In this document: positions 34 through 41,076 of the stretch, piece after piece | Position numbering within the stretch: position 1 is the first letter of the stretch | How the letters are laid out: each line of letters starts with the position of its first letter | Assembly (NCBI GenBank): GCA_021736185.1 | Contig: JAIPGJ010000001.1 | Span: forward strand, 141-64,140 | Source of the DNA: Fidelibacterota bacterium | GTDB lineage: Bacteria > Fidelibacterota > UBA8477 > JABMPR01 | Length of the DNA stretch: 64,000 nucleotides | Direction: 5' to 3' | The notes under the pieces: generated by a model | Seen by the model: the letters and a program-made list of their open reading frames with translations, nothing else | Told to the model about the DNA's origin: nothing | Databases searched by the model: none | Made by a program: the position numbers and the translations under genes

Positions 34-289
34 GCAATCCAGTGGACTGTTCATCAAACCCAAACTAGAAATGAATTGATTTTTCTCAAGCTTTAGTAAA
101 TCAACCCATAACAGAAAAAGTCTAAGTTACTGACAATCAATCTGTTGCTGGGTTTTTTTTAGAATAAATAGTTGCCGATAAAGACTATTATTATCATCAA
201 GATATTCCAAACCATAGGAATGTTGAGATGGTGTTTCTCAAACGTAGGAAAAAATGAAATTAACAATAGAAGTTAACATGGAGGAAAAA

Positions 290-1354
290 ATGAGTAGAAA
301 AATCAGTTACTTAGCCATTCTGATGATGGCACTGATGGTTATGTTTACAGTGAGTTGTGAGGGCCCAGAGGGTCCTGCTGGTCCTGCTGGTGAAGCTGGT
401 CCTGCTGGTGCTGATGCCCAGGTAACCTGTTTGTCTTGTCACAACGACGCCACAATGCTTGACAACCAGTTTGAAATGGCTCGTTCACAGCATGGACTTG
501 GTGACCTGGCCGTTGATTATGCCGGTGGTCGTGCCTCTTGTTCATATTGCCATTCACACGAAGGATTTGTGGAATGGGCTACTACTGGAGAAAATCCCGG
601 TAACTATACCACCCCATCCCCTTGGCAGTGTTCAACCTGTCATGGTCTGCATACCACCTTTGATGAAACATTTGAAGCGGATACAGACTACGCACTGCGT
701 AAAACCAATGCTGTTACAGCCATTTTTGACGCAACAGTCACCATGGACGTGGATGCCAGCAGTAACCTTTGCGTGAATTGTCACCAGGCTCGTACGAACT
801 ATACTGCTATGATTCAAGAGGGTGGTCTTACAGCTAGAATCACCAGTACCCATGCTGGACCCCATCATGGTCCACAAGCCAATCTGTTGCTAGCCAACAA
901 TGGCTCAAGTGCTGGTACACCTTTCAGCGCCCACCTGGGAGCTGGTTGTGTGGGTTGCCACATGTACGAGACCACTGGCGACGAAGAAATGAACGTCAAT
1001 GGCGGACACACCTTCTGGGCAGCAGCTGAGAAGTGTAACGCCTGTCACGAAGGCCCAGATGTTGTTTTCGATGCCAGTCGTGATGCCGAATTCGAGCATG
1101 AACCATACTATGACTACAAAGGTTTCCAGACTGAGATCGCAGAAAAGCTAGAAAACCTCGCTGGTCTCCTACTTGCAGCTGGTGTTTTTGACAGTACGCA
1201 TACTGTTGTTCCTGGAACTTATTCCATAGCACAATATAATGCTTTCTGGAATTATACATATATTGCTGAAGACCGGAGCCATGGTGTTCACAGTCCTTAT
1301 TACGCCGAGGAATTGCTGAACTCAGCTATCACCGGTTTGGGCGGCACACCATAA
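290..1354 (+). CDS. Lipoprotein hexaheme c-type cytochrome with a collagen-like G-X-Y linker
   Basis: The ORF track gives 254..1354. The preferred start is ATG 290, which follows GGAGG at 281-285. Signal peptide plus lipobox (FTVSC). Six CxxCH motifs: CLSCH, CSYCH, CSTCH, CVNCH, CVGCH, CNACH. GPEGPAGPAGEAGPAG repeat sits immediately after the lipobox Cys. Confidence 0.85.
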   Translation: MSRKISYLAILMMALMVMFTVSCEGPEGPAGPAGEAGPAGADAQVTCLSCHNDATMLDNQFEMARSQHGLGDLAVDYAGGRASCSYCHSHEGFVEWATTGENPGNYTTPSPWQCSTCHGLHTTFDETFEADTDYALRKTNAVTAIFDATVTMDVDASSNLCVNCHQARTNYTAMIQEGGLTARITSTHAGPHHGPQANLLLANNGSSAGTPFSAHLGAGCVGCHMYETTGDEEMNVNGGHTFWAAAEKCNACHEGPDVVFDASRDAEFEHEPYYDYKGFQTEIAEKLENLAGLLLAAGVFDSTHTVVPGTYSIAQYNAFWNYTYIAEDRSHGVHSPYYAEELLNSAITGLGGTP

Positions 1355-1370
1355 GCTCAATTCTTATCTG

Positions 1371-1401
1371 AAAAAAACCCCACTTCGGTGGGGTTTTTTT
1401 T
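1371..1401 (+). terminator. Rho-independent terminator
   Basis: aaaaaaaCCCCActtcggTGGGGttttttttt: a perfect GC stem, a tetraloop and a long T-run, directly after the stop of the hexaheme cytochrome. Confidence 0.8.
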
Positions 1402-1494
1402 TACTATCCGTCGTGGAAGCTCTGGCTTTGGTCATCGCCGCTGAACAGACATATCAAACCGGTTACAATGCCAAATCTCCTGCATTTAAACCAT

Positions 1495-1522
1495 TTGATT
1501 TTATGCGACACTCGTCTAAAAT
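1495..1522 (+). promoter_or_regulatory. Sigma70-like promoter candidate (TTGATT-N16-TAAAAT)
   Basis: -35 and -10-like hexamers with a 16-nt spacer, about 40 nt upstream of the ATG at 1564. Confidence 0.35.
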
Positions 1523-1563
1523 TAAGCGTATGTAACCCTGAAACGAAAAATGGATAAATCGCG

Positions 1564-2571
1564 ATGACAAAATCTTTGATTGTCGGCTGTATTGTAGGTC
1601 TAAGCATCCTTCTATCTCCACTGAACTTGATTGCTGCAGATGGAGATGAAATTCCTGAAATTCCTGAAAACATATCACTGGGAGTATTGAAAAACATTTT
1701 TCAACCAGTGAATTTCCCCCATCGCGATCATGCCCACATGTCAGAAATGGGGGCGGGATGTGTGACCTGCCACCATTATGCGGCAGATCAAATTTATGAT
1801 CCCTGTGCTGATTGCCACACCAATGACCCTGAAGATCTGGGCAGCGGTATCCCATCATTGAATGCAGCCTATCATCGCAAGTGTCTGAATTGTCATCGTG
1901 GCTGGAGTGAGACCAATGTTTGTGGTACCTGCCATGTCAAAAGTGATCCATCACCCAGCCCAGCCATGGCATCCACCCAGCCCAAAAAGCCCATCAAGTC
2001 TCCCCAGATGGTAAATTATATAACTCCCAAAGCGGATGGTGGACCACAAGTAAGTTTCCGTCACGCTGAGCATGTCGAGTTGTTTCGATTTGACTGTGCG
2101 GCTTGCCACACAGATGAAAATTGTGTCACCTGTCATGGACCACAACAGGTGCAGGATGTTTTTACCGGGAGTGCTGAAACCCATCATTTCCCCTGCAGCA
2201 AATGCCATGCTGTGAATGACATGCCTGGTTGTGAAAAATGTCACCGACAACAAGCCTCAAACGGTTTCACCCATGACATGACCACATTTCCTTTGAAAGC
2301 CTTCCACGCTTCCCGCAATTGTACGGATTGTCATGATGCCAACACATCAGTGAAAAAACTGGACAAAACCTGTACCCATTGTCACCAGAATTTTCAACTT
2401 GGCAATTTTGACCATGAGGCAACCGGATTGGTTCTGGAATTAGGCCATGAGGAATTTGAATGTTACGAATGTCATGTGGATGAAGATTTTAGTCAACCAC
2501 CATCATGCTACGAATGTCATGAGGATGAACTGAAATTTCCCGATGACCTGCCCGGGACTCGTGTGGATTAA
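1564..2571 (+). CDS. Dodecaheme c-type cytochrome (periplasmic)
   Basis: Signal peptide (MTKSLIVGCIVGLSILLSPLNLIAA). Twelve CxxCH motifs in 335 aa: CVTCH, CADCH, CLNCH, CGTCH, CAACH, CVTCH, CSKCH, CEKCH, CTDCH, CTHCH, CYECH, CYECH. Confidence 0.85.
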   Translation: MTKSLIVGCIVGLSILLSPLNLIAADGDEIPEIPENISLGVLKNIFQPVNFPHRDHAHMSEMGAGCVTCHHYAADQIYDPCADCHTNDPEDLGSGIPSLNAAYHRKCLNCHRGWSETNVCGTCHVKSDPSPSPAMASTQPKKPIKSPQMVNYITPKADGGPQVSFRHAEHVELFRFDCAACHTDENCVTCHGPQQVQDVFTGSAETHHFPCSKCHAVNDMPGCEKCHRQQASNGFTHDMTTFPLKAFHASRNCTDCHDANTSVKKLDKTCTHCHQNFQLGNFDHEATGLVLELGHEEFECYECHVDEDFSQPPSCYECHEDELKFPDDLPGTRVD

Positions 2572-2610
2572 CTTAGAATATTTGAGATTTACACATCATC
2601 AGTGTGAAAA

Positions 2611-2650
2611 ACGGGACCGTCTCAGTACATGAGATGGTTCCGTTTTTTTT
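2611..2650 (+). terminator. Rho-independent terminator
   Basis: cgggaccgtctc/agtacat/gagatggttccg gives a 12-bp stem with two G-U wobble pairs, followed by T8. Confidence 0.75.
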
Positions 2651-2881
2651 AGCCAGGGATCTATCTACGCTCACAGAGCTTCGATAGATAAATTTACACT
2701 CGCCTCTGCTCGTTGAGCTACGTCGGGCAGGCGGATTTTCACTGATAGGGAGAGGTAATGGTTACCCAGGCAGATGCAATTTGGATTGTGTCTTGCTGAG
2801 CTATCCCCATCTCAACCCAACCCCAGTTTACTCTACACCTTTATACCCCTTATACCATTACACCCTTAAACCCTCGACATT

Positions 2882-2913
2882 AAAAAAAGAGACCGCCCTT
2901 TTGGGACAGCCTC
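2882..2913 (-). terminator. Terminator-like hairpin downstream of the minus-strand heptaheme cytochrome
   Basis: A-run, then gagaccgccc-tttt-gggacagcctc. On the minus strand this reads as an imperfect 10-bp stem with G-U wobbles followed by T7. Confidence 0.45.
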
Positions 2914-2922
2914 TATTTCTTA

Positions 2923-3720
2923 TTACAAGTTATGGCAAGCGTAACACAATTTTTCTCTGGGTAGTCTCAGGAAATGCTGATTCTCTTCACTCCCAGCATA
3001 CACCACTGCATCAATCCCCAATGATCCATGGATATAGTGACAGGTGGTGCATTGGATCTCATTTTTCTGAGATAATGGCAGTTTGATATTATAGCGTTTC
3101 TGTGTGCTCTCGTATTGCTTGAGCGTGGCCTTTTTGGAGGCGGGAATATTTTTTCCGTAATGATTTTGTTCATGGGTATGCAAGGCATGACATTTATTGC
3201 AGGTTGACCGCATGTCTCCGTGCAGTTCTGCAGCAATCATGGGGTGATCTGTGGCTGTAGGTTGACGCGAATGACAATGGAGACAGACCGTGCTGTTAAT
3301 ACTGCCATCTTCCCGAAGTTGCTGATGTGGATTCACCTTGGCATAATTCTCAATTGAATGACAGTTATAGCAAAATTCTAATTCCCTGCGGTAGGGTCCT
3401 CCGCGTAAAAAGGCCCGGTTTGATCTGGTTTGTTTGCTAGCTGCTTCATGGCAGGTAAAACAGGTCAAATCAGCTTTTTGGGAAAGGGGGAAATCCTCGG
3501 GGATTGACATCTGGGGACTCTTTGGATTCAGATTAAACATGGGATGAATTAAGGCATTGATACCATCTACAGAGTGACATTCGCTGCAATCCCATTTTTT
3601 GCTGAGTCCTTCAGCATGGGGGTTGGATTTACCAGAGTAAGTGGTAGTTAGTTGTGCTGAAATAGTACTCACACTGAGTACAGAAGCAACAATGAGGGGG
3701 AAGATTTTATATGGCGACAA
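2923..3720 (-). CDS. Heptaheme c-type cytochrome (periplasmic)
   Basis: Signal peptide. Seven CxxCH motifs: CSECH, CFTCH, CYNCH, CLHCH, CNKCH, CTTCH, CYACH. TTG start is preceded by AGGAG at optimal spacing. Confidence 0.8.
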   Translation of the reverse strand: MSPYKIFPLIVASVLSVSTISAQLTTTYSGKSNPHAEGLSKKWDCSECHSVDGINALIHPMFNLNPKSPQMSIPEDFPLSQKADLTCFTCHEAASKQTRSNRAFLRGGPYRRELEFCYNCHSIENYAKVNPHQQLREDGSINSTVCLHCHSRQPTATDHPMIAAELHGDMRSTCNKCHALHTHEQNHYGKNIPASKKATLKQYESTQKRYNIKLPLSQKNEIQCTTCHYIHGSLGIDAVVYAGSEENQHFLRLPREKLCYACHNL

Positions 3721-3885: not shown

Positions 3886-6183
3886 TCAGGTCATTTTATT
3901 GCTGCCCTTGAGGATGAGCAAAGCTGACCCATAAAGGATCATTGCTACGCCTAATCCTGCCCTGAAACCAAAACTGATGATGATCAAAATAGTTATTGTG
4001 GATCCCAGCACCGAGGCTGCTCCATTGACGGCAAAACTCCAGTCCACCAGTGGACCCACATGTCGGACGCCTTTGGGAAAGGGCATCCCCATAAAGAAAC
4101 CCAGCGGACTGACCACCAGGACGGTTGCCAGGATGCGCATCCCCTGTTCATAGTGACCAAATAGCATAACAAAATATCTAAAAAGGATGATATCAAGAAA
4201 GAGCCAGGCTATAATGGCCAGAAAGACCATATTTGATTCAAATACGGAAGAATAACGACTTCCAATTCCTGAGCTGATGAGCAGCGTGACCAGAATGGCT
4301 GCCACACTGTAGACTGAGGGTCCCACCAACAGGGTATACTGCTGCATAAGAATCAGCTCAACGGACATATAAGCGATACCGATGAGCGCAAAATAGGCGA
4401 AATGTCTGAGAGAAAGATGAGGTCCGGCTCTGAAATAGGGGATCAGGGTGATGGGGAAGATCAGCAATAGAACCACCAGGATGATGATCAGTACAATCAA
4501 TTTTGTCAGGGGGAAGCCTCTGAACTCATAGGGCAGCAATTGAGCTTCCCTGTCAAAGCTCAAATTTTTCCATAGCCCCATTTGAGCAGCAAAGGGTCGA
4601 TTGTCACTGTTGGGAGAAATATCTACGGCCAGAGAATCTGCCACTTCTTGCCAACCCTGTTCCACGATTCTCTCGTAGATATTATCCTTAAGAGAGTCTA
4701 CAGCTGGATAGACGAGATGAACATCCTGAAAATTCTCGCTGCTGATGTCCCGCAGGGCAATCTGTAAGAAATCAGTTTCCAGGGGTCGTTTTGACAGTAA
4801 TAAAACCTTCCGACGCATGCTGGGCAAATTGTACACGGCAATATGAGATTTGGGATGCTCAACTCCAAGTTTATCCAAGGCTAGGAGTGCTTCGCTCACC
4901 AGTCGGGGCATATAAAACTGATGTTCCATCATGAGGAATCCCGAATCAGAAAGAGCGATCCAGTAATCCTGGAAGGCTTCCGTGGTGAAGAGGTAGTTTT
5001 CAGCCAAAGCAAATGACCCGGAGGCCAGAGCCGCAAAGGTGTTGGAGCTTAAGGAGTAAATCACATCAAAACGGGAGGAGTGCCGACGAATAAAGGCCCG
5101 GGCATCTTCAGAGATCACCGTCACTCGTGGATCATGATAAAATTGGCTGGTGTAGGTCGGTAATGTCACCAATTCTGACTGAAGCGTATCAGTATAGGAT
5201 CTCAGATAACCCTCAGGATCGCCCTCTAGAAGCATTTTGTTGAACCAGGGGTTGACCTCTACCGCATAAACCTCAGTCGCTCCCTGGGCCAGGGCCTGTA
5301 GAACATCAGCACCACCACCAGCCCCCAGAGAGAGGAAGTGGCAGGATTCGAATTGTCGAATCAAATCACCTGCCGGGATGCCCCACAGATCCTCTGCACC
5401 ACTATCGGGCAGTGAAAAATCACCATCGAATTTATAGACTGGGGTATTGGCAGCATTGTCGATGACCATGCCACGGGCTTCATCACCAGGATAGGCAAAC
5501 ATCTTGACCTGTGCCATGGCATCCCAGTGTTGATAAATGCTGGGGAGACGTTCGGGTTTGCTTGACTTAAGCAGGATGTGACCGAAGTAACTGGTCCCCA
5601 TGGCCAGCAGAATCAATACACCGGGAAGCAGCTTCCATAATTTAGGGCTATTGATCAAGGCGGCGATAAAGATGGGAATACTGATTAAGAAGCTGGCAAC
5701 AGGGGTGCTGAAAACATTCATGGCCAGGATGGCACCAATCACTCCAAGGCCAGCACCTAGAAGATCAGCCATATAGAGTTGGGATATGTTGGAATGAAAG
5801 CGTTTAAAGAGGATGGCCAGAGCAATGCCACTGAAATAGAAGCTGGAGCTGAGAATAATAATGACCAGTATGAGTTTGCCTAACATGGCCCAGCTGCCAG
5901 CCAGGGCTGAGAAACTCATCCCCAGACGATAGACCAGAGGGGGACCCACCAGGATCATGATGCCACCCACAAGCAGGCTGTTGCGCAGGCTGCCCAGGCT
6001 GTCTACTTTTGGGAAAAGCCGCAGGGTGAGGCCTCCAAGACCCAGACCGAGAATGGCCAGGGAGAGTACCAGAAAGGCGAAGGTATAAAAGAATTCCGCT
6101 GCCAGAATTCGTGTCCAGATGAGCTCAAGCGATAATAGTGAAAATGATAAAAGCGCGATGGTGTAGCTATGTTTGCGATCCAT
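3886..6183 (-). CDS. Polytopic membrane protein with a central spermidine-synthase/methyltransferase-fold domain
   Basis: N-terminal and C-terminal multi-TM blocks flank a soluble domain carrying the SpdS-like motif LSLGAGGGADVLQALAQGATEVYAVEVNP. The ORF track starts at TTG 6201. ATG 6183 (MDRKHSY...) is preceded by GAGGGG. Confidence 0.75.
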   Translation of the reverse strand: MDRKHSYTIALLSFSLLSLELIWTRILAAEFFYTFAFLVLSLAILGLGLGGLTLRLFPKVDSLGSLRNSLLVGGIMILVGPPLVYRLGMSFSALAGSWAMLGKLILVIIILSSSFYFSGIALAILFKRFHSNISQLYMADLLGAGLGVIGAILAMNVFSTPVASFLISIPIFIAALINSPKLWKLLPGVLILLAMGTSYFGHILLKSSKPERLPSIYQHWDAMAQVKMFAYPGDEARGMVIDNAANTPVYKFDGDFSLPDSGAEDLWGIPAGDLIRQFESCHFLSLGAGGGADVLQALAQGATEVYAVEVNPWFNKMLLEGDPEGYLRSYTDTLQSELVTLPTYTSQFYHDPRVTVISEDARAFIRRHSSRFDVIYSLSSNTFAALASGSFALAENYLFTTEAFQDYWIALSDSGFLMMEHQFYMPRLVSEALLALDKLGVEHPKSHIAVYNLPSMRRKVLLLSKRPLETDFLQIALRDISSENFQDVHLVYPAVDSLKDNIYERIVEQGWQEVADSLAVDISPNSDNRPFAAQMGLWKNLSFDREAQLLPYEFRGFPLTKLIVLIIILVVLLLIFPITLIPYFRAGPHLSLRHFAYFALIGIAYMSVELILMQQYTLLVGPSVYSVAAILVTLLISSGIGSRYSSVFESNMVFLAIIAWLFLDIILFRYFVMLFGHYEQGMRILATVLVVSPLGFFMGMPFPKGVRHVGPLVDWSFAVNGAASVLGSTITILIIISFGFRAGLGVAMILYGSALLILKGSNKMT

Positions 6184-6386
6184 ATTCCCCTCAGACGTCA
6201 AGTTTTCTTATTCAGTGATGGTGGTGGTCAATTGCGGCTGTTTTCCCAGAACCAGTATTGGATTGAAATTATAAATGCCAGGGAATAATGGGCAGTTGGA
6301 TCGGTAAAAGGCGCCAATATTCTGTGGATGGCTTGGCCCGACTGTCTTGTGTCAATGAGACCGGATGAGGGTTGAATAGTTGGGAT

Positions 6387-8288: not shown

Positions 8289-11200
8289 ATGAATTCAGTA
8301 AAAAGCGTTTTACTATCCATCCTGTTTGTCACTACCAATGTATTTGCCATTGCTCCTCCAAAACCTGGCATCCAGGTGAATGAGTTCTTTGCCCGGGACC
8401 AGGCGCGCTTTGCTGAATCATATGCAAGCTCAAGTCTGGCTCAACGCATGCAACAGCTGAAATCATCCAGTCTAAGAACAACCAGCCTGATCACCTTTCC
8501 TGTCATGCTAGGCCAATACTCAGATGCTAATCATCAATTCAGCCTTACTCAGTTGGATTCCATGCTCTTAGGTGATAATGCAACAGGATCGCTGATTGAT
8601 TATTATGCACAAGTCTCCTATGATCAACTAACCATCGAAGCCACGATGTATGCCTGGCAAACCTTGCCAGGCAATCAGGCATATTACGTTGGCAATGATA
8701 ATGGCGGTGAAGGTGAGGCTGCCAGATTTTGTTATGATTTGGCAGCAGCGAATGATGCCACCCTTGATTTTTCACAATATGATAATGATGGCCCCGATGG
8801 TGTTCCCAACTCTGGAGATGATGACGGTTATGTAGATGTAATGGTGGCCGTGCATTCAGGTGGTGGAGCTGAAACTGGAGATGACGACAACATCTGGTCG
8901 CACCGCTGGACTCTCAGTGGCGCACATTATTATTATCCTGATATGATGCCCTATAGTTACTATGAAACCAATGATGTCGCGGCCAACGGTGGTTTTATCA
9001 AAATAAATGACTATATGATCCAACCTGAACAATATGGCACCGGTTTGCCCAGTGATCCCATTATTGCCATTGGTGTGTATTGCCACGAACTTGGCCATGT
9101 CCTCGGTCTCCCCGATCTCTACGATACGGATGGTACATCAGCCGGTATTGGAAATTGGGGCGTCATGTCTGGTGGTTCATATGGTGGTGATGGAGCTCAT
9201 CCCGGGACACCAGCGCAAATGTGTGCCTGGTCCAAAGAATTTATGGGTTGGCTGGATCCAATTGTGGTTAGCGCTGATATCTTTTCCCAGGACATTCAGG
9301 CAGTTGAATTTAACGAGGAAGCCTATAAGATTCATATTACCGATGATGAATACTACCTCATTGAGAACCGCCAGCAAATTGGCTTTGACCAGTATTTATT
9401 CACTAGCGGAATATGCATCTGGCATGTGGATAATACTGTTCAGAAGAATACCAATGAATTCCATAAAAAGGTGGATCTGGAAGAGGCAGATGGGCTCACC
9501 CAAATGGATGACGATGTCAATCGTGGGGATGATGGGGATCTATTCCCGGGTTCAACCGTCAATCGTCGTTTTGGGTCAGACACGACACCCAATTCTACTG
9601 CCTATAGCGGCATGCCCTCCGGTTTTAACCTTGAAAATATTAGTAATTCGTCTGCGACCATGACTGGTGACTTCATATTTGATGATCCAGTTGAAGCTGG
9701 GGGAGACGTTGTCTTTGCTGAAAGTTTTGAGAGTGGAATGCTTCCCAACCATTGGGTTGCACTCGATGAGGATGGCGATGGAGAGAACTGGCACGTCCAG
9801 TCAGAGCCCTTCACCGACGAAGATATGGCTTATCTGGGAAACAGGGGTCTCAGATGTATGAGCAACAGCACAGCCAGCAATGACTGGCTCATTACCAGTC
9901 TGAGTAATTTGTCGCTCAGTGGCGATATCGCCTTCTCCTTCTTGGCCCGTTCACGATCAGATGCAAGCCCTGGGGACTTCAATGTGCTCCTGTCAACCAC
10001 GGGATCCGATCCTACTGATTTCACAGTGACATTAGCCAGTGTCAGCGCAGCTTCCCCCGACTGGACCTACTATGCCTATGATCTCTCAAGCTATGTTGGT
10101 CAGCCTATCTATCTGGCCATCCAGATGGTAACTGTAAATGGAGACTATCTCTACCTGGATGACTTTCACCTGATCACATCTGAGCCTGTACCTGATCCAA
10201 GCCTTACTCTCTCCAGTAATTCCCTCTCCATGGTATTGCCGCCAGGGGAAACCGGGGCACAGGATTTATCTGTCAGCAATGTAGGTGAGCTGGGTTCATT
10301 GCTGACATATGATGTGTCATGGGAATATGCTGCTCCAGCCATGGCACGGCTAAGATCCAGTGAGGTTCCAATCAGTTTGGGAACCCGATCGACCACGCGC
10401 ATAACCGAGCCTGAGCCTGCGCTGGAACCTGTCATGAATCCACTGGATAACCGCGAGCAGTTCACTATCAGCTATCATGGGAGTTCCGCCTATCTTTTTC
10501 ATCTACCAGACCAATACGGTGCTACGGAATTTGCGGTGAGATTCACCCCTGAGACGTATGTCAACATCCTGGAAGGACTCAGGATTGTGTTTAATGGTGT
10601 GGTAGGTATGCCTGATGCCACCATCCATGTCTATTCAGATAATGGATTCGGTTTCCCCGGGACCGAATTAGGTACTGTCATATTAAGCTATGCTGATATC
10701 ACGCCAGGTTACTGGCAGGTGGTCAATTTATCTTCACTTAATCTCTCTTTCGAGGCTGGGGAAGATTTCTTCATTTCCTATTCAGTCAATGGCGGAGTGT
10801 ATGGTAGCAGCGAAATCAAAGCCCTTGCAGATGCAGGAGGTATGGGTCTAAACCGCTCCCTTGAATTTGATGGGAGTAATTGGGGATACATGCAAAACGA
10901 TTGGGGCACCGACTATGAATTTCTCATGGAGGCCCAGGTTTACTATACAGATGAAGTAGCACCCACATGGTTGTCTGTTACGCCCACAGCAGGTGCAATC
11001 CAGCAGAATGAAACTGACGTGCTCACCGTTCAATACGATGCTACAGATCTGGTTGCTGGCACTTATCATGCGACCATAAGCCTCAATCATAATGCCTCTG
11101 CATCCACTGATGTGATTGATGTAAGCTTTGTGGTGGACCAGAATATGGTTATCACTGCGCTGACGCCCTCCCCGGGTAGTGTGACCACGGATGAAGGCCA

Positions 11201-13328
11201 ATCCATTCAGTTCCAAGTGGAAGCCCATGATCCAGATGGGCATGACCTGGCCTATTTATGGGAACTGGGCGAACAGACAGTCTCAACCACTACCTCCTAC
11301 CTATTTGAGCCAGGTTTTGATGCATCAGGTGATTATGCACTATCACTTCTGATCACAGATTCCTTTTCCGATAGGGATACAACTTTTACCTGGGATATAA
11401 CGGTTCAGAACGTCAATCAGGCTCCCTTACCTTTTGCTCTCCTGACACCATTGGAATTAGATACTGTTCACACTTTGACACCCCACTTCCTCTGGGTATC
11501 AGCTCAAGATCCAGATCCTGAGGATATAATTAGTTATCACTTGATCCTGGGACGCCCTGGTGCTCTTCTCGATACCATTGATGTGGGAACAGATACCAGT
11601 TTTATCGCCGCCACAGCGCTTCTGGACAATACCCACTATCAATGGGATGTGATTGCCTTGGACCCCGGCGGTCTTAGCCAGGAAACCAGCAGCGGCTTTC
11701 AAAACTTTGTCGTGAATGGGGTCAATGATGTTCCAACCGACTTCCAGCTTATTGCGCCGGTTGCTAATTTAATGGTGACCAGCTTAACACCGGAATTTTT
11801 GTGGTTTGCCTCTGCGGATCCCGATGATGGTCCTTTTCTGTCCATTCGCTCCCAAGGGCAAGAAGACCTACCTCAGGGGAATTCCGTTCGCTTTATCACA
11901 GGGTATGAACTGCAATATGGTCTGGAACCAGACTTGTCCGATGCCGTCTCCGTTGTGGTGCCAGACACAAACTTCACGCCTGAAACTGTTCTAATGGAAA
12001 ATCAGGATTATTATTGGACAGTTTCTGCCATGGATGATTCCAGCAGCATGACACCTGCAGATACGGCCCATTTCTGGACCAATAGTGTGAATGAGGCACC
12101 AGCCCAATTCCTAATGCTGGAACCGACAGGGATAAACCCACCTGAAATCACCACCCTAACACCCACGTTCAGGTGGAATTCTACTTCTGATCCTGATATT
12201 CATGATGCCATTATTTACCGACTCAGTCTTGGGCAATCAGCTTTGGATATGGTAGAAGTATACGCAGGCACTGACACCAGCTGGACATTGAGTACCGCCC
12301 TGCAAGATAATGCATTCTATTCCTGGCAAGTCTGGGCTGAAGATCCATCAGGTGAATTAACAGCAGGTACGAATAATAATACAGCGAACCCCGCAGACTT
12401 CATTGTCAATACCATGAATGATGCACCTGAACCAGCCACGCTCATTTATCCAGATTCTGCAATTGTTATCAGCAATACACCAACCTTTAGCTGGCTGGCG
12501 AGTTACGATCCTGATCCGGGTGAGATGTTGGAATATGAAATGCATTGGTGGTATACAGGAGGTGAGTGGGATTCCCTTATCACCACCGAGACCTCTGGGA
12601 CTGTAACCAGTCCACTCACCAGAGAAAATCTGCAGTATTTTTGGCAGGTTATCAGTATGGATGATCAGGATGGAATCGCCCAGTCCAGGGACGGTGTATT
12701 CTGGCTTGATACCCTTGCTGAACCCCCGGGTGAGTTTTCATTGATTGCCCCAGCTGATGGCAGCAGTGGTCTGGGTACACGACCGGAGCTGACTTGGGAA
12801 GCATCAATCGATCCTGATCCATTTGATACCATTCAATATATTGCCTATATCGCCACTGATTCGCTTATGGAAAATCAGATTGAGGAGATTGCGTTGACAA
12901 CTGAATCTTCTACGCCAGACCAGGATCTGCAAAATGACAGCCGCTACTACTGGCAAGTTGCTGCGATGGATGAAGATTCTCTGGTGACATTGTCAGAAAT
13001 CTGGAGTTTTGATGTTGGCTATGTGGCGGTGGATGGGATCAACCTTCCCCAGGAATTCAGTCTGGACCAGAATTATCCGAACCCCTTCAATCCTATGACC
13101 ACCATTAGATATGGAATACCCAACAGTTCAGATGTCAATTTGGTCATCTATGATCTGAGAGGTCGGGAAATCAGGCGCTGGTCTCAGATGGCGCAGAACT
13201 CAGGCTGGTACAACGTGGTTTGGGATGGTACTAGCCAGGATGGCGTGCTTGTCCCCACAGGCGTTTATCTTGCCAGATTTCAAACGGAGGGTTACTCTCA
13301 CATGATTAAAATGGTCTATTTAAGATAG
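8289..13328 (+). CDS. Secreted M6-family (InhA-like) zinc metalloprotease with FN3-like repeat modules and a T9SS C-terminal sorting domain
   Basis: Signal peptide. HELGHVLGLPDLYD zinc motif. At least six roughly 100-aa modules with TP.F.W.....DPD...I.Y.L signatures. Terminal NYPNPFNP...IYDLRGREI...WDG...GVYLARF...KMVYLR matches the T9SS type-A C-terminal domain. Confidence 0.9.
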   Translation: MNSVKSVLLSILFVTTNVFAIAPPKPGIQVNEFFARDQARFAESYASSSLAQRMQQLKSSSLRTTSLITFPVMLGQYSDANHQFSLTQLDSMLLGDNATGSLIDYYAQVSYDQLTIEATMYAWQTLPGNQAYYVGNDNGGEGEAARFCYDLAAANDATLDFSQYDNDGPDGVPNSGDDDGYVDVMVAVHSGGGAETGDDDNIWSHRWTLSGAHYYYPDMMPYSYYETNDVAANGGFIKINDYMIQPEQYGTGLPSDPIIAIGVYCHELGHVLGLPDLYDTDGTSAGIGNWGVMSGGSYGGDGAHPGTPAQMCAWSKEFMGWLDPIVVSADIFSQDIQAVEFNEEAYKIHITDDEYYLIENRQQIGFDQYLFTSGICIWHVDNTVQKNTNEFHKKVDLEEADGLTQMDDDVNRGDDGDLFPGSTVNRRFGSDTTPNSTAYSGMPSGFNLENISNSSATMTGDFIFDDPVEAGGDVVFAESFESGMLPNHWVALDEDGDGENWHVQSEPFTDEDMAYLGNRGLRCMSNSTASNDWLITSLSNLSLSGDIAFSFLARSRSDASPGDFNVLLSTTGSDPTDFTVTLASVSAASPDWTYYAYDLSSYVGQPIYLAIQMVTVNGDYLYLDDFHLITSEPVPDPSLTLSSNSLSMVLPPGETGAQDLSVSNVGELGSLLTYDVSWEYAAPAMARLRSSEVPISLGTRSTTRITEPEPALEPVMNPLDNREQFTISYHGSSAYLFHLPDQYGATEFAVRFTPETYVNILEGLRIVFNGVVGMPDATIHVYSDNGFGFPGTELGTVILSYADITPGYWQVVNLSSLNLSFEAGEDFFISYSVNGGVYGSSEIKALADAGGMGLNRSLEFDGSNWGYMQNDWGTDYEFLMEAQVYYTDEVAPTWLSVTPTAGAIQQNETDVLTVQYDATDLVAGTYHATISLNHNASASTDVIDVSFVVDQNMVITALTPSPGSVTTDEGQSIQFQVEAHDPDGHDLAYLWELGEQTVSTTTSYLFEPGFDASGDYALSLLITDSFSDRDTTFTWDITVQNVNQAPLPFALLTPLELDTVHTLTPHFLWVSAQDPDPEDIISYHLILGRPGALLDTIDVGTDTSFIAATALLDNTHYQWDVIALDPGGLSQETSSGFQNFVVNGVNDVPTDFQLIAPVANLMVTSLTPEFLWFASADPDDGPFLSIRSQGQEDLPQGNSVRFITGYELQYGLEPDLSDAVSVVVPDTNFTPETVLMENQDYYWTVSAMDDSSSMTPADTAHFWTNSVNEAPAQFLMLEPTGINPPEITTLTPTFRWNSTSDPDIHDAIIYRLSLGQSALDMVEVYAGTDTSWTLSTALQDNAFYSWQVWAEDPSGELTAGTNNNTANPADFIVNTMNDAPEPATLIYPDSAIVISNTPTFSWLASYDPDPGEMLEYEMHWWYTGGEWDSLITTETSGTVTSPLTRENLQYFWQVISMDDQDGIAQSRDGVFWLDTLAEPPGEFSLIAPADGSSGLGTRPELTWEASIDPDPFDTIQYIAYIATDSLMENQIEEIALTTESSTPDQDLQNDSRYYWQVAAMDEDSLVTLSEIWSFDVGYVAVDGINLPQEFSLDQNYPNPFNPMTTIRYGIPNSSDVNLVIYDLRGREIRRWSQMAQNSGWYNVVWDGTSQDGVLVPTGVYLARFQTEGYSHMIKMVYLR

Positions 13329-13381: not shown

Positions 13382-13465
13382 CATTTAAACAAGAGTTGTT
13401 TTGTGAGTCTGTCCAATGATTATGTTATCGTGTGGTCTAAAATCATGTCCGAAAGGGATGGAAAC

Positions 13466-13870
13466 ATGCAAGCATTAGTCTGGAATAATCGTTTCAATGT
13501 TGGGATTCGAGAATTTGACCAACACCACAAGATTTTATTCGAAATGGTGAATTCGCTAATTATCGCCAAGGAAGAGAATAGTGGTCCTCAAGTCATTAAA
13601 AATTCACTTGAGCAGCTGCATATGTATACCATTTTCCATTTCACTGCCGAAGAAGCCATGATGAGACATTTTGAATTTGATGGCCTGGATGAGCATGTGG
13701 CTGAACATGAAGCGCTCCTCCAACAGGTGATCGACTATCAAGACAGAATTGCTGCCAATGATGGTGTGACCATAGATGAGATGCTTGAATTTCTTGCAGG
13801 ATGGTTAATAGATCACACCCTGGGCTTGGATCAGCTTTATGGCCCATTCCTCAGACATCGAGTTGAATAG
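13466..13870 (+). CDS. Bacteriohemerythrin
   Basis: WNNRFNVGI...FDQHH...HFTAEE..M..H.....H..EH hemerythrin HHE cation-binding pattern. The ORF track starts at 13403. MQALVW at 13466 is the typical hemerythrin N-terminus. Confidence 0.8.
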   Translation: MQALVWNNRFNVGIREFDQHHKILFEMVNSLIIAKEENSGPQVIKNSLEQLHMYTIFHFTAEEAMMRHFEFDGLDEHVAEHEALLQQVIDYQDRIAANDGVTIDEMLEFLAGWLIDHTLGLDQLYGPFLRHRVE

Positions 13871-13896
13871 CCTTGTTTTAACATAAGGTCTGAATC

Positions 13897-14097
13897 CTAG
13901 ATGGATTCATCATCCTGAAAAATTTCCTCAATCGATAATTCAAATAATCTGGATACTTTGAAAGCCAAGGGTAAACTGGGATCAAATTTTCCAGTTTCAA
14001 TGGCGTTAACAGTCTGTCTTGAAACCTCCAGGGCCTCGGCCAGTTGAGCCTGTGTCCAATCCCGCTCTGCGCGCAGTACCTTCAGTCGATTTTTCAT
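13897..14097 (-). CDS. XRE-family helix-turn-helix transcriptional regulator (YozG-like)
   Basis: 66 aa. LRAERDWTQAQLAEALEVSRQTVNAIETGKFDPSL is the canonical XRE HTH. Confidence 0.85.
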   Translation of the reverse strand: MKNRLKVLRAERDWTQAQLAEALEVSRQTVNAIETGKFDPSLPLAFKVSRLFELSIEEIFQDDESI

Positions 14098-14516
14098 CGA
14101 TAGCGCCTATTCCCGGTAAAAACACCAATAGCATAAGCAAGGGACATTAAAACGACCAGGTGTGAAATTTCTGGCTGAAAGCTTATGAGGTGTATGTCTT
14201 CTAATAGTTCATAGCTGAGTCCTGCCACAACTCCAACGCTCAGGGACAACGCAGTCGCCTCAAGTTGGATTTTTTGTTGCAGGTCATCAAGATCTCTCAA
14301 GTTCAGCTTATTGGCGTGTATCCAGCCAAGGCCTGCGGCAAGGTTCACCAGGAGCGCTAAAATGCTGGGTAAGGTTGCATAATCCCAGGCGAACTTGGGG
14401 CCAAATGCGGCAATTGCCAAGGTTATGACCCAGGCCGTTGTCCAGTATCCAAGACGGAGGGTATTCTTTTTTAATCGGGTTGTCCAGTTGCTGTTTTCTG
14501 TTGCTGGTGTATTCAT
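14094..14516 (-). CDS. Small four-TM membrane protein co-transcribed with the XRE regulator (DUF2975-like)
   Basis: Four predicted TM helices. Its stop overlaps the start of the HTH gene. This pairing is typical for the YozG/DUF2975 arrangement. Confidence 0.5.
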   Translation of the reverse strand: MNTPATENSNWTTRLKKNTLRLGYWTTAWVITLAIAAFGPKFAWDYATLPSILALLVNLAAGLGWIHANKLNLRDLDDLQQKIQLEATALSLSVGVVAGLSYELLEDIHLISFQPEISHLVVLMSLAYAIGVFTGNRRYR

Positions 14517-14621
14517 AAGTATGGTTCCTTTGTCATAATGTTAAGTGTGCTTGACTAATCTAGAGGTGAATATTCAAAAGTCAAGCATCCTTTACAAAAA
14601 GAATGGTGTGCTTGATATTAA

Positions 14622-15740
14622 TTGTTTAACCGGATGCCAGCAACAAGCCCATTAATTGATTACCACCTCAGCTATGTTATCATTAGCTTTCTATCCATGA
14701 GAATGCTTAAACGACTCCTCCTGTTTATCACTGCGCTAATTGCCTATGTCATTTTACGCGAAATGCTCAATTTTTATGTCCTGGCTCATACGGCAAGCCC
14801 CTATCTGGGATATCTTGTTTTAATAATCCTTATTTCTGTTTTATTCTATTTTGTGGTTATCCCGCTCTACCGAATTAGCAGACTCAGCGGTGATCCTGGA
14901 CCCGTTCGGAAAAAGCGAAAAGAAGCCGAGCTTATGGAAATGCGTCTCCAGCGCAGAGCGAGTAACAAGTTTCTGAAGGACCTGGGATATGTGATTCCAA
15001 GTTCAGGGACAACCCTTGAGCGTTATGAGCTTTCAACAAAGGAGCTGTCGCTACGCTGTGACGAGATCAGACGAAAATATGTTGTTCATTTATTTTACAG
15101 CAGTGCCGTATCCCAGTATGGCTTTATTGACGCGATTCTCATCTTTTCAGCCAACGTTAATCTGATCAAAGAAATTTTCACCCTCTACACAGGCCGCGCT
15201 TCGGGTAGAGATTTGTGGCACATCATGAAACAGATATACTATTCCATTGCCATTGGAGGGTCTGAAGGGGTGGAGTTTGCTGTGGAAGAACTGATCTCCA
15301 AGATGGGCTCGGATACCTTGAAAAGTATTCCCTTCTTTGACAAGGTCATGGCGTCCATTGCCAGCGGTTTTACCAATGCCGTTTTGTTGTCACGGATATC
15401 TTTGATTACAGAAAATTACTGCAGAATGACTTATATCGAATCGACCCGCGATCTCTCTCCTGATCCCAGACAAATTCTGTCTTCAACCAAATCTATTGTG
15501 CAGGAACCCATTCGTCATATTAAAGCGCAGCTGAATGATATCGCCAAACAAAAGGCCATCGATTTCTCTCGCTATGCCCTCAACCCAACCCGTACGGTGA
15601 TTGAAAAGGCCCTGGATAAATTCACTTCCAAATCTGAGGAGGAAAGTGAAGAGACTCAAGCAGTGAAAAGCAGTATTGCCATTGGTTTGAATCCATTGAG
15701 ATTATTCAGCTTCCGACGACTCCGTAAATCCAAAAAATAA
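14622..15740 (+). CDS. Hypothetical membrane protein (possibly DUF697/YcjF-like)
   Basis: Two N-terminal TM helices, a basic linker, a large cytoplasmic domain and a C-terminal basic tail. No diagnostic catalytic motif. Confidence 0.45.
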   Translation: MFNRMPATSPLIDYHLSYVIISFLSMRMLKRLLLFITALIAYVILREMLNFYVLAHTASPYLGYLVLIILISVLFYFVVIPLYRISRLSGDPGPVRKKRKEAELMEMRLQRRASNKFLKDLGYVIPSSGTTLERYELSTKELSLRCDEIRRKYVVHLFYSSAVSQYGFIDAILIFSANVNLIKEIFTLYTGRASGRDLWHIMKQIYYSIAIGGSEGVEFAVEELISKMGSDTLKSIPFFDKVMASIASGFTNAVLLSRISLITENYCRMTYIESTRDLSPDPRQILSSTKSIVQEPIRHIKAQLNDIAKQKAIDFSRYALNPTRTVIEKALDKFTSKSEEESEETQAVKSSIAIGLNPLRLFSFRRLRKSKK

Positions 15741-15974
15741 TCGCACACCATTTTTACAAAGAACGAAACGAGGTAAACGAATTATTATATAGTCATTCGT
15801 TCCTTTCGTTGTAAGAACTTGTTGTAATAGTTTCAGGCGGAGATTATTCATTTTGGTTTAGATTGGTATGGCTTGAATGGGCTGTTAATCAGACTGTGGG
15901 GAAGACAGATATCAGACAACTACCAGCTATAAATTGTTCACAAAAATGCGATTGCTGTTGCAGCTTGAAAATTT

Positions 15975-15991
15975 GTGACTATTATAGTCAC
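15975..15991. promoter_or_regulatory. Perfect palindrome GTGACTA-tta-TAGTCAC, candidate operator upstream of the PDH operon
   Basis: 7-bp inverted arms with a 3-bp spacer, about 75 nt upstream of the aceE start. It overlaps the only -35/-10-like hexamers in the region (TTGAAA, TAGTAT). Confidence 0.45.
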
Positions 15992-16053
15992 GTTAGTATG
16001 AGTTACTCTGAACTATTCTGCCAAATTTCTATCCTAAAAAATGCAATTATTTA

Positions 16054-18738: not shown

Positions 18739-18855
18739 CAGAATCGAAACAATTAAAGAGAATTGATATGCTTCGACCAGCTCAGCAAGACATACCAAGA
18801 GATTTAGTGCAATAATATTATCTCAAATTGAAATTGATTGAAGAAAGATAAAATC

Positions 18856-20118
18856 ATGCTAAAAGAAATAATCATACCGGATCTAGGGGAAGGCATTGAT
18901 AGTGTTGAAGTAGGGGAGATCAATGTCAAACCCGGTGATCATGTAGATGTTGGTGATATTCTGGTCATCCTGGAGAGTGATAAAGCCTCCATGGAAATTG
19001 AATCCGAGTACGCCGGCACCATTAAAGATATTCGCATTAGCAGCGGTTCTGAAGTCAGTACCAATACCATTCTGGCTACCATTGAAGCAGATGAGACGGA
19101 AGCAGTAGCAGCGCCTGAACCAGAAGCAGTCAAAGCCGAAGAAAAACCAGTCAAAACCGCAGCTCCGGCAGCTCCAGTTGAAGAAGAAATGCCCAAAATT
19201 CCCATTGAAGTTCCGGTTACCAAGCGTCGGATCATTCCTGCCAGCCCTTCCGTTCGCAGATTTGCCCGTGAATTGGGTTGCGATTTAAGTCAGGTCAGTG
19301 GTACCGGCCCCAAAGGTCGTGTCCTCAAGGAAGATGTTCAGAATTATGTCAAGGGACGTCTCAGCGATGCTCCCGGTGTCAATTTGAGCCGACCTCCTCA
19401 AGCTGAGATCGATTTCAGCCAATGGGGTGAAATTGAAAAGGTCCATCTGAGCAAGATACGCAAAGTGACGGCTGTCAACCTGCAGCAGGCCTGGCAAACC
19501 ATTCCCCATGTCACCCAATATGATGAAACAGATATTACAGAACTGGAAGCCTTTAGAAAGATATACAAGCATGCCGTGGCCAAAGACGGAGGCAAGCTTT
19601 CCATATTACCCTTTATTATGAGGGCAGCAGCCAATGCTCTCAAGGAATTCCCGGATTTTAATAGCTCACTGGATGTATACGGCGAAAACCTGATCCATAA
19701 AAAATATATTCATCTGGGGATTGCAGTGGATACCCCCAATGGATTGGTTGTGCCCGTCATTCGAGATGTTGACCAGAAAAGCTTGAGTCAACTCGCCGTA
19801 GAGTTGGTTGATGTGAGCACCCGGACCCGTGATCGTAAAATCAAGCCAGCTGAACTGGTTGGTGCAACCTTTTCCATTTCAAGTCTTGGCGGCATTAGCG
19901 GAACCGGTTTTTCACCTATTGTCAATCCGCCGCAGGTTGCCATCCTGGGTGTTTCCCGCTCGAAGATCAAACCAGAATACGATGGTTCGGACTTTCAACC
20001 CCGACTTATGCTGCCTTTCTCACTGTCCTATGACCACAGGGTTATCGATGGTGCCACTGCAGCCAGATTCACAAAATTTATCGCTGATGAATTAAAAGCG
20101 ATCAAAAATTTATTTTAG
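18856..20118 (+). CDS. aceF: Dihydrolipoamide acetyltransferase E2
   Basis: Lipoyl domain (ESDKASMEIESE), E3-binding domain (PSVRRFARELGCDLSQVSGTGPKGR) and catalytic DHRVIDGA motif. The ORF track starts at TTG 18838. ATG 18856 is preferred. Confidence 0.9.
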   Translation: MLKEIIIPDLGEGIDSVEVGEINVKPGDHVDVGDILVILESDKASMEIESEYAGTIKDIRISSGSEVSTNTILATIEADETEAVAAPEPEAVKAEEKPVKTAAPAAPVEEEMPKIPIEVPVTKRRIIPASPSVRRFARELGCDLSQVSGTGPKGRVLKEDVQNYVKGRLSDAPGVNLSRPPQAEIDFSQWGEIEKVHLSKIRKVTAVNLQQAWQTIPHVTQYDETDITELEAFRKIYKHAVAKDGGKLSILPFIMRAAANALKEFPDFNSSLDVYGENLIHKKYIHLGIAVDTPNGLVVPVIRDVDQKSLSQLAVELVDVSTRTRDRKIKPAELVGATFSISSLGGISGTGFSPIVNPPQVAILGVSRSKIKPEYDGSDFQPRLMLPFSLSYDHRVIDGATAARFTKFIADELKAIKNLF

Positions 20119-20133
20119 CTTCAGGAGATTTAA

Positions 20134-28892: not shown

Positions 28893-28903
28893 GAGGCGTC
28901 ATT

Positions 28904-31088: not shown

Positions 31089-31100
31089 GGAGGATTTCTA

Positions 31101-33352: not shown

Positions 33353-33733
33353 CTATTTCATCACCCCGGCATGGGTTAACATGTAGGCGACGGCATCCTC
33401 AATATCCTTTTCAGAACACTGAGAACACATCCCCATAACAGGGAGCTCGCCATATTTACCGCGGTAGCCATGAACAGTATTGTACACGAGTTGGTCAAAC
33501 CCCTTCTCAGCACTCTCCTGCCAACGGCTATTCTGATCTAAGCGATGTGCACCCTCGATGGCGCCAGTATGACAGAGCATGCAATTATCCTTGTAAATTT
33601 TCTCACCATTAACCAGGTCAGCATGGATATCATGCAAATTAAGTTCGCTTTTTGAGCTACAGCTGAAGATTGCTGCAATCATGAGTAAACTGGATGCTAA
33701 AAAAAGTGATCGATACATGGATTCCCCTCTCAC
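33353..33733 (-). CDS. Monoheme class-I c-type cytochrome
   Basis: Signal peptide. A single CMLCH motif with a downstream Met. Likely start MYRSLFL (33718). Confidence 0.75.
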   Translation of the reverse strand: MRGESMYRSLFLASSLLMIAAIFSCSSKSELNLHDIHADLVNGEKIYKDNCMLCHTGAIEGAHRLDQNSRWQESAEKGFDQLVYNTVHGYRGKYGELPVMGMCSQCSEKDIEDAVAYMLTHAGVMK

Positions 33734-35879: not shown

Positions 35880-35926
35880 GCCGGTTATTCGCATTTGATT
35901 CTAAGGATCAAAGCTGGATATATAAA

Positions 35927-41009: not shown

Positions 41010-41076
41010 GTCCCCCTCAATAAAAAAGTGACTTCGTAAATAATCGCGTGAGTTAATTATGCATAATACATGCCAG

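Follow-up and report, generated by a model that had tools for sequence, protein, structure and literature searches.

The 16-heme HmcA and nine-heme NhcA cytochromes of Desulfovibrio are built from c3-like tetraheme modules, and GSU1996 of Geobacter sulfurreducens (PDB 3ov0), a soluble periplasmic dodecaheme protein of 318 amino acids (aa), consists of four c7-type triheme domains. In the MtrCAB conduit of Shewanella and the OmaB-OmbB-OmcB conduit of Geobacter, periplasmic and lipoprotein multiheme cytochromes are combined. The Desulfovibrio NhcABCD complex is described as a TpIc3:quinone oxidoreductase with multiheme, Fe-S, and NrfD-like subunits (PMC8076601), and the nonaheme OcwA, a structural relative of the five-heme NrfA, is a cell surface terminal reductase of Thermincola potens (PMC6703420). 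Here we examine three neighboring multiheme cytochrome genes, called A, B, and C, near the start of a 64,000-nucleotide stretch of DNA (the window) from Candidatus Marinimicrobia. The trio, from an uncultured phylum, adds variants to cytochrome superfamilies already known and is not a new kind of system. Two points are new and of moderate interest: the clean scar of the deletion that made the cluster, and a collagen-like stalk conserved in the A family.

The genes and their intrinsic terminators are as follows.

254..1354, plus strand: gene A, hexaheme c-type lipoprotein, 366 aa, 6 CxxCH motifs
1371..1402, plus strand: terminator of A, perfect 13-bp stem, 4-nt loop, T9
1564..2571, plus strand: gene B, soluble periplasmic dodecaheme cytochrome, 335 aa, 12 CxxCH motifs in six pairs
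2607..2650, plus strand: terminator of B, 18-nt stem (89% complementary), 5-nt loop, T8
2923..3720, minus strand: gene C, soluble periplasmic heptaheme cytochrome convergent with B, 265 aa, 7 CxxCH motifs
2914-2888, minus strand: terminator of C, 11-bp stem with 6 G-C pairs, then T7

The original prediction had counted 6, 12, and 7 hemes within 3.5 kb, distributed over a lipoprotein, a heme-dense periplasmic protein near c3 packing, and a convergent heptaheme protein, each gene with a terminator of its own, and every element of that description was borne out. In-frame CxxCH motifs number 6, 12, and 7 in A, B, and C, respectively, and six-frame translation finds 25 in the 3.47-kb region versus 6 in the other 60.3 kb of the window. 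DNA shuffles of the region produced a mean of 0.18 motifs and a maximum of 2, and residue shuffles of each protein never produced more than 2, so the motif count lies far above chance. All cysteines outside the signal peptides (totals of 13 in A, 25 in B, and 14 in C) fall within CxxCH motifs, and neither CxxCK nor longer-spaced heme motif variants occur in the three proteins. Signal peptides, read from hydrophobic segments, end in lipobox Cys35 in A and are of the ordinary Sec type in B and C, with cleavage predicted at about the junction of LIA and A in B and of ISA and Q in C. With a terminator behind each, A, B, and C are predicted to be separate transcription units; a scan for sigma-70 promoters found sites no more commonly than in shuffled sequences, and promoters were not assigned. 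The window begins at a contig end, and the neighborhood of A can be read downstream only. An exact look-up of B from the window returned no record. Nearest relatives of all three proteins are Marinimicrobia, and C is 100% identical to a protein of a Candidatus Marinimicrobia metagenome-assembled genome (MAG) (P0241, locus tag K9M55_00015), the third gene on its contig, matches by which we assign the window to such a MAG. Type IX secretion system (T9SS) sorting domains elsewhere in the window agree with an organism of the Fibrobacteres-Chlorobi-Bacteroidetes (FCB) group.

The three genes do stand side by side, as the word "cluster" in the original prediction implied, but comparison with related loci (numbered L001 onward) traces the adjacency of A and B to a deletion. 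Where Marinimicrobia carry a B of 59-74% identity, it ends a nine-gene operon, with C lying convergently behind it (L001, L004, L014, L016, and L174). Genes 1 to 4 of this operon encode a 551-aa protein with no signal peptide and no known domain, a membrane-anchored 8-heme cytochrome, and NrfC-like and NrfD-like proteins; genes 5 to 9 encode a Rieske protein, a cytochrome b, a 9-heme cytochrome, a c554-like tetraheme cytochrome, and B. The operon joins two quinol-oxidizing modules, one of 8-heme cytochrome, NrfC, and NrfD and the other of Rieske protein, cytochrome b, and 9-heme cytochrome, an arrangement of which we found no description. In L012 and L013 an ortholog of A (71% identity) stands upstream of the operon, and a sensor histidine kinase and a sigma-54 response regulator separate it from the genes for the 551-aa protein, the 8-heme cytochrome, NrfC, and NrfD; the L012 contig (90.9 kb) also carries a cytochrome b gene. 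In the nearest relative, L007 (A 91%, B 90%, and C 92% identical), A is followed directly by B, as in the window, where the spacer measures 209 bp.

That spacer matches both sides of the longer arrangement. The A terminator (positions 1373-1401, 29 nt) recurs without a mismatch behind A in L012 (100% identity), and immediately before B in L001 the DNA matches positions 1467-1503 with 89% identity. The right-hand scar is a gene remnant.

1422..1535, plus strand: pseudogene relic of the c554-like tetraheme cytochrome, last ~38 codons

A tblastn search with residues 149-182 of the L001 c554-like protein against positions 1422-1523 gave 53% identity over 34 aa (E 9e-6); in the relic, the fourth and last heme motif (originally CLGCH) has degenerated to YQTGY, and the stop codon occupies 1533-1535. 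Because the A-B junction is common to the independent assemblies of L007-L009, it is not an assembly artifact and predates the split of these lineages. From the coordinates of L012 and L174, we estimate the deleted block at ~11.5 kb, and these alignments show its loss, in the common ancestor with L007, from just after the A terminator to within the c554-like gene. A thus sits next to B because the respiratory block between them was deleted, and the locus is shown to be the collapsed form of a larger quinol-oxidizing respiratory island. The trio did not evolve as a unit; the one conserved pair is B with the convergent C, present in Marinimicrobia loci where B identity is at least 46% (L001-L009, L014-L017, L019, L174, and L181). 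Beside more distant B homologs (L018 and L020-L026), C was not detected.

The genes downstream of B and C also correspond, and their shared order with L174 anchors the orthology of the whole neighborhood.

13403-21549, plus strand: hemerythrin, DUF697 protein, and pyruvate dehydrogenase complex (E1, E2, and E3), in the same order in L174

After the deletion, A, B, and C were kept under purifying selection, with ratios of nonsynonymous to synonymous substitution rates (dN/dS) versus L007 of 0.12, 0.11, and 0.07, respectively, at dS of 0.39-0.55. A cluster look-up of cytochrome b and NrfD orthologs gave no member attributable to this MAG, a result that cannot exclude a copy of the deleted operon elsewhere in it.

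Protein A, which probably starts at Met9 or Met13, has a hydrophobic segment at residues 15-38 and a Cys35 that is invariant across 50 homologs, the predicted signal peptide and lipobox of a bacterial lipoprotein. A short repeat follows directly.

356..415, plus strand: lipobox Cys35 and collagen-like (Gly-X-Y)6 run GPEGPAGPAGEAGPAGAD, within gene A

An uninterrupted run of 4-16 Gly-X-Y triplets comes directly after the Cys in 50 of 50 aligned homologs, and all 79 further metagenomic homologs carry such a run as well (Cys adjacent in 78). The window protein has 6 triplets, and the family mode is 8-9 (range, 4-16; 129 of 129 members). The Gly columns show little or no variation, Pro, Thr, and Ala are common at X, and the charged or polar Y is often Asp; Pfam collagen (PF01391) is on record for homologs P0132 and P0136. 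By its uninterrupted repeats the segment classifies as collagen-like, with a triple helix only putative; in a monomer prediction its pLDDT (predicted local distance difference test) is 47-58. Streptococcal Scl and Bacillus BclA proteins likewise have uninterrupted Gly-X-Y repeats with Pro, Thr, or Ala at X, charged or polar Y residues, and variable repeat number, but the run in A is very short and lies between a lipid anchor and a heme domain. Within the library searched, we found no paper linking collagen-like repeats with multiheme cytochromes.

The heme domain of A found no match among PDB sequences in a single-sequence search, and its affinities emerged from profiles and a model. A profile of the 50 homologs matches NrfA at E 2e-8 (2j7a; also 3ubr) over profile positions 114-341, aligning hemes 3-6 of A with hemes 2-5 of NrfA together with a C-terminal helix motif (GxHNP). 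The AlphaFold model, which contains no hemes, has a pLDDT of 78 and helices at 288-308, 325-340, and 348-361. Its best Foldseek match in the PDB is OcwA (6i5b; E 1e-4, probability 1.0, query TM-score 0.46), followed by the S-layer undecaheme cytochrome of Carboxydothermus ferrireducens and then by NrfA and octaheme nitrite reductases. Profile and model together place A in the NrfA/octaheme nitrite reductase/OcwA structural superfamily, as a predicted member with NrfA-like C-terminal helices and four aligned hemes. Membership in the NrfA nitrite reductase family itself does not follow: A has six CxxCH motifs, not five, and no CxxCK, and it scores 21.8 bits with Pfam NrfA (PF02335), below the cutoff of 24.1. 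Unlike the nonaheme OcwA, A has six hemes and would be the lipoprotein of a diderm with a collagen-like stalk, and the high-spin state of OcwA hemes 2 and 5 (PMC6703420) cannot be inferred for A.

The A family comprises more than 613 homologs (protein clusters) in Marinimicrobia and marine Bacteroidota, and at least 509 metagenomic loci. Homologs in marine Bacteroidota are 36-46% identical to A of the window and head a cluster encoding A, a 127-aa monoheme-like protein, a DUF5777 membrane beta-barrel, a 312-aa multiheme cytochrome, and a cytochrome b561, often followed by NrfH-like and c554-like cytochromes. Among loci of at least 6 kb, the first part of this cluster is present in 29 of 42. 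Gathering a barrel, a periplasmic multiheme cytochrome, and a membrane cytochrome b around A, the Bacteroidota cluster looks like a trans-envelope electron pathway of the kind formed by the Mtr and Oma/Omb/Omc proteins. We found no paper on DUF5777.

Mature B has ~310 residues, or 25.8 residues per heme, which is a c3-like density. Pfam Cytochrom_CIII (PF02085) matches its N-terminal third with 57.6 bits against a cutoff of 22.9, and a search with the family profile (43 members) finds HmcA (1h29) at E 2e-32, with the match split into four stretches, as well as nine-heme cytochrome at E ~1e-21 (1ofw, 3e-21), tetraheme c3 at E 1e-11 to 1e-7, and GSU1996 at E 2e-10. When the family alignment was cut at module borders and the parts were compared by HHalign, the segments at aa ~40-128, 155-231, and 232-335 matched one another with probabilities of 97.4 (modules 1 and 2), 94.5 (modules 1 and 3), and 95.2%, a homology by which B is predicted to consist of three tandem c3-like tetraheme modules. 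Module 1 of the family carries the invariant c3 ligand pattern HxxH...CxxCHH...CxxCH...H...CxxCH...CxxCH, and B thus qualifies by sequence as a class III (c3-type) multiheme cytochrome. All 12 CxxCH motifs and 11 non-motif His residues are invariant across the family. In module 2 (residues 155-231) the c3 CxxCHH signature is missing its second His, so one heme may be His/Met coordinated or five-coordinate; the only conserved Met residues are Met59 (95%) and Met62 (77%). The string IVGC at residues 6-9 was considered as a lipobox and rejected, having only five residues before it and a Cys that is not conserved in L005.

For B, the comparison to Omc, Mtr, and c3 families that the original prediction had proposed came out in favor of c3 and Hmc, and the window proteins have no homology to Mtr or Oma/Omb/Omc components beyond generic heme motifs. 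B shares with HmcA and NhcA the c3-like tetraheme modules and the c3 His-ligand pattern, and its family is usually encoded with HmcB-like and HmcC-like genes, of which the window holds a pair. B differs in having 12 hemes in three modules, not 16 or 9, and in being unlinked and monocistronic here. It scores 42 bits against a cutoff of 400 with the HmcA model (NF045713) and 25.8 against 640 with the nine-heme model (NF045784), is not an HmcA or NhcA equivalog, and is best placed as a distinct 12-heme branch of the Hmc family. Gene order among its relatives (Fe-S protein, membrane protein, cytochrome: B-C-A-like in Hmc terms) also departs from Hmc and Nhc; HmcD, HmcE, HmcF, or NhcD was not seen; GcvH-like proteins, a heme motif kinase, and a sigma-54 regulator accompany the module; and the host bacteria belong to the FCB group and do not reduce sulfate. 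GSU1996 has the same heme count and density as B in a soluble periplasmic protein of nearly the same length, but B has three c3-type four-heme modules in place of four c7 triheme domains, and the similarity covers one region of B only.

In a scan of one genome per species, B relatives were found in at least 549 species genomes of Marinimicrobia, Ignavibacteria, Zixibacteria, Calditrichota, Gemmatimonadota, Phycisphaerae, and other groups. Among the 74 B homolog loci with enough flanking DNA, 60 have an HmcB-like Fe-S gene within 4.5 kb, and 57 have an NrfD-family (HmcC-like) gene too. Usually the Fe-S gene comes first, then the NrfD-like gene and the cytochrome gene, and genes for a sensor kinase, a response regulator, and a membrane-anchored GcvH-like protein often come next. 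The corresponding genes of the window lie ~40 kb from B.

42559-43818, minus strand: HmcC-like NrfD-family membrane protein; best NCBIfam match HmcC, E 1e-107, below the equivalog cutoff
43805-44674, minus strand: HmcB-like Fe-S protein with Tat signal; best NCBIfam match HmcB, E 7e-99, below the equivalog cutoff
38003-45436, minus strand: seven-gene cluster of transmembrane (TM)-anchored GcvH-like protein, HmcB-like protein, HmcC-like protein, second TM-anchored GcvH-like protein, Cys-rich GcvH-like protein, kinase, and sigma-54 regulator
39333-41102, minus strand: sensor histidine kinase with CSHCH at residue 166, in a predicted periplasmic loop between two TM segments

This pair is 40-49% (Fe-S protein) and 29-45% (membrane protein) identical to the genes adjoining B homologs in other phyla and, of the references compared, is the one that those genes match best. 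We regard it as most plausibly the membrane partner of B, a reasonable candidate and not a secure one. Window B is monocistronic between A and C and does not adjoin the pair as the genes of Hmc and Nhc adjoin one another. No literature on an HmcB-HmcC-B module outside sulfate reducers was found.

The seven-gene module also occurs in Ignavibacteria, where it is divergent from an operon of HmcB, HmcC, and a 13-heme cytochrome, and L059 holds GcvH-like, GcvH-like, B, HmcB, HmcC, GcvH-like, and response regulator genes in one string; the literature searched contained no description of the module. A role for the GcvH-like proteins as lipoylated carriers was considered and is unsupported, the lipoyl-Lys of true GcvH not being conserved. 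The third of them has an N-terminal Cys-rich motif. The heme motif of the kinase suggests a c-type heme redox sensor, and a kinase beside B homologs in Ignavibacteria (e.g., L044) also has one CxxCH.

Protein C gave only a marginal match in a single-sequence search of PDB sequences, and its profile matches OcwA best, at E 3e-6. A word-indexed search returned 43 relatives, nearly all from Marinimicrobia; an exhaustive profile search returned 2163 cluster representatives, of which 307 reach E<1e-30. The unit recurs singly (~280-350 aa), doubled (~500-560 aa), and in up to 14 copies (proteins of 1-2 thousand aa), mostly with 8 hemes and with 7 in the clade of the window, and C is a single copy of a widespread 7-8-heme module that also builds giant cytochromes. 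Distant homologs are clustered with 9- and 20-heme cytochromes in L005, and one in L180 lies with a cytochrome b561-multiheme fusion, NHL repeat proteins, and a 686-aa cytochrome. A membrane protein is syntenic with C.

3886..6201, minus strand: 771-aa polytopic membrane protein with a weak spermidine synthase-like domain (Pfam PF01564, E 0.01)

L001, L007, and L015 have orthologs of this protein next to C or close to it, and the protein is 82-95% identical in other Marinimicrobia. We considered it as an operon partner of C and ruled this out: four sulfur-related genes intervene in L001, among them DsrE2-like, DsrC/TusE-like, and pyridine nucleotide-disulfide oxidoreductase genes, and the gap in the window is 165 bp.

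Other redox genes that the original prediction had placed in the window, a NiFe hydrogenase, NrfCD-like modules, and a monoheme cytochrome, were all located.

27747-33312: hybOABC-type [NiFe] hydrogenase genes, in an operon with a maturation protease
28904-31088 and 42559-44674: two NrfC/NrfD-type pairs
33353-33733, opposite strand to the hydrogenase operon: 126-aa lipoprotein monoheme cytochrome c

The hydrogenase Fe-S and membrane subunits score above the NCBIfam HybA and HybB cutoffs, which identifies the enzyme, by sequence, as the Hyd-2 (HybOABC) type. Hyd-2-type hydrogenases reduce quinone, so a link between hydrogenase and cytochromes would run through the quinone pool, unlike the direct hydrogenase/c3 link of Desulfovibrio. 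A Hyb hydrogenase also appears in published reconstructions of Marinimicrobia (PMC5688066).

We lean toward a reading in which these components form a periplasmic electron relay from quinol-oxidizing modules to a membrane-tethered end cytochrome, a role we consider probable and in which we infer the acceptor and the direction of flow. H2, by way of the Hyd-2-type hydrogenase, and other donors would feed the menaquinone pool, and menaquinol electrons would enter the periplasmic cytochrome pool through NrfCD-type modules. B, as a heme wire of the HmcA/NhcA type, would dock on the periplasmic face of an NrfC/NrfD-type quinone-interacting module, in this genome most plausibly the HmcB/HmcC-like pair at 42.6-44.7 kb, and would exchange electrons with C and other periplasmic cytochromes. 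A would be the membrane-tethered end-station, held off its lipid anchor by the collagen-like Gly-X-Y stalk, and, by analogy with the structurally related OcwA, its electrons would most likely go to an acceptor outside the cell or close to the outer membrane.

Of the original prediction of a periplasmic or extracellular electron transfer network, the network itself fits homology and gene neighborhoods, but extracellular transfer is not shown, and several observations count against the relay as drawn. As predicted, neither a heme-copper oxidase nor a terminal reductase, and also no cytochrome c maturation gene, was found among window open reading frames (ORFs) of at least 150 aa, and the window showed no outer membrane barrel family. 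The DUF5777-type neighbors known from Bacteroidota are absent beside A in Marinimicrobia, so that the barrel of a porin-cytochrome conduit accompanies only the Bacteroidota relatives of A. With the adjacency of the three genes an accident of deletion, A, B, and C need not share one pathway. Several Ignavibacteria carry a cytochrome-less HmcB/HmcC and GcvH-like module beside a second, B-linked copy, and because the two coexist the window-type module may not need B; by its regulator (54-57% identity), the cytochrome-less copy is the closer to the module of the window. The conserved non-motif His residues of A (8-9) outnumber its six hemes, which fits electron transfer by bis-His hemes throughout, although A may still hold a catalytic site. 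The model of C is poor (pLDDT 68), contains no hemes, and has no structural match. Finally, Desulfovibrio Hmc and Nhc carry electrons inward to quinone, opposite to the flow proposed here.

A more far-reaching version is one that we entertain only tentatively and think doubtful. In it, A would stand for a class of lipid-anchored multiheme cytochromes not recognized before and widespread in Bacteroidota and Marinimicrobia. The obligatory collagen-like segment would trimerize into a rigid, Asp-rich stalk that keeps the OcwA-like hexaheme head at a distance from the membrane, and the head would be the outer end of an FCB trans-envelope conduit, wired in Marinimicrobia to Hmc-like 12-heme cytochromes; as part of the same joint claim, the Bacteroidota conduit would consist of the DUF5777 barrel, the monoheme cytochrome c, the 312-aa multiheme cytochrome, and cytochrome b561. 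If this is true, respiration of particles, metal oxides, or humics would be open to abundant FCB bacteria of pelagic and sediment habitats.

Among competing explanations for the locus, the one that survives best is that A is a tethered catalytic reductase of the NrfA-like kind, acting on nitrite, hydroxylamine, sulfite, tetrathionate, or a similar substrate, with B and C as its donors and no electrons leaving the cell. The alignment of hemes 3-6 and the C-terminal helices with NrfA, a surplus of His beyond bis-His requirements, and the lack of an outer membrane conduit gene in the window all speak for catalysis, and the Bacteroidota barrel could be a substrate channel instead of a conduit. OcwA itself, a reductase of iron oxides and shuttles, slowly reduces nitrite and hydroxylamine (PMC6703420). 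On the other side stand the missing CxxCK, the subthreshold Pfam score, and the N-terminal part of A, where a catalytic heme would sit and which does not align with NrfA. We also know of no long collagen-like stalk in periplasmic reductases of the NrfA-type family. The conserved His residues suffice for six bis-His hemes and, with the absent CxxCK, favor electron transfer over catalysis, so that we think a catalytic A possible and unlikely.

The relay could also run backward, with periplasmic or extracellular donors (for example, sulfur species, Fe(II), or humics and cytochromes in reduced form) passing electrons to the cytochromes and from B on through the HmcB/HmcC-like pair to menaquinone, as in Desulfovibrio. 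The closest characterized relatives of B and the pair are indeed cytochrome c3:quinone oxidoreductases (PMC8076601), and sulfur genes (DsrE2, DsrC/TusE-like, and rhodanese) adjoin B-C or C homologs in L001 and L180. Sister lineages, however, cotranscribe B with Rieske/cytochrome b and NrfCD modules, which are typical quinol oxidizers, HybA and HybB already connect the hydrogenase to quinone without a cytochrome, and the window holds no identified periplasmic donor enzyme. Inward flow strikes us as improbable.

Electron storage has been proposed for periplasmic multiheme cytochromes of Geobacter, and B, perhaps with C, might act mainly as a heme capacitor or buffer in the periplasm and not as part of a defined complex. 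B is soluble and monocistronic, packs 12 hemes into ~310 residues, resembles GSU1996 in sequence, and outlived its operon under purifying selection, but its linkage to HmcB/HmcC-like genes across phyla (60 of 74 loci) argues for a fixed partner and its modules are c3 tetraheme units, not the c7 triheme units of GSU1996, which makes storage as the main role very improbable. That A, B, and C are decaying leftovers, a thought raised by the vanished operon between A and B and the relic of its c554-like gene, is close to refuted by intact ORFs with every heme motif and all three terminators in place and by dN/dS of 0.07-0.12 (dS 0.39-0.55) versus a relative that shares the deletion, in contrast to the relic, which has lost its heme motif.

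The remaining features of the window lie farther from the cytochromes.

8289-13328, plus strand: 1679-aa M6 (immune inhibitor A-like) peptidase with adhesin, PKD, BACON, and T9SS C-terminal sorting domains
23321-25792, minus strand: 823-aa protein with an NAGPA phosphodiester glycosidase domain and a T9SS C-terminal sorting domain
34341-37444, plus strand: two tandem paralogs of 505-512 aa, each with an NAD-dependent epimerase/dehydratase domain at the N terminus, followed by a long C-terminal extension that matches no family
60950-63988, minus strand: CbiM, CbiQ, and an ATP-binding cassette (ABC) ATPase, preceded by two DUF4198-like ORFs

The last group is probably a Ni/Co uptake system, which could possibly supply the hydrogenase. 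Its DUF4198-like ORFs (62920-63453 and 63362-63988) overlap and may reflect a frameshift or a miscalled start.

Marinimicrobia are abundant in oxygen minimum zones and the dark ocean, and to our knowledge none has been cultured. Published reconstructions of their metabolism stress Hyb hydrogenase, polysulfide reductase, and NosZ and leave multiheme cytochromes unmentioned (PMC5688066). The genes described here indicate that Marinimicrobia carry Hmc-like and OcwA/NrfA-like multiheme cytochromes whose large families still await experimental study, and that their respiratory islands are remodeled by clean deletions after which the soluble carriers stay in service. The collagen-like stalk is, moreover, a feature not previously described for cytochromes. 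These findings leave current ideas in place but provide testable candidates for electron exchange between FCB-group bacteria and particles or minerals, and some FCB carriers (Draconibacterium, Labilibaculum, and Maribellus) can be cultured.

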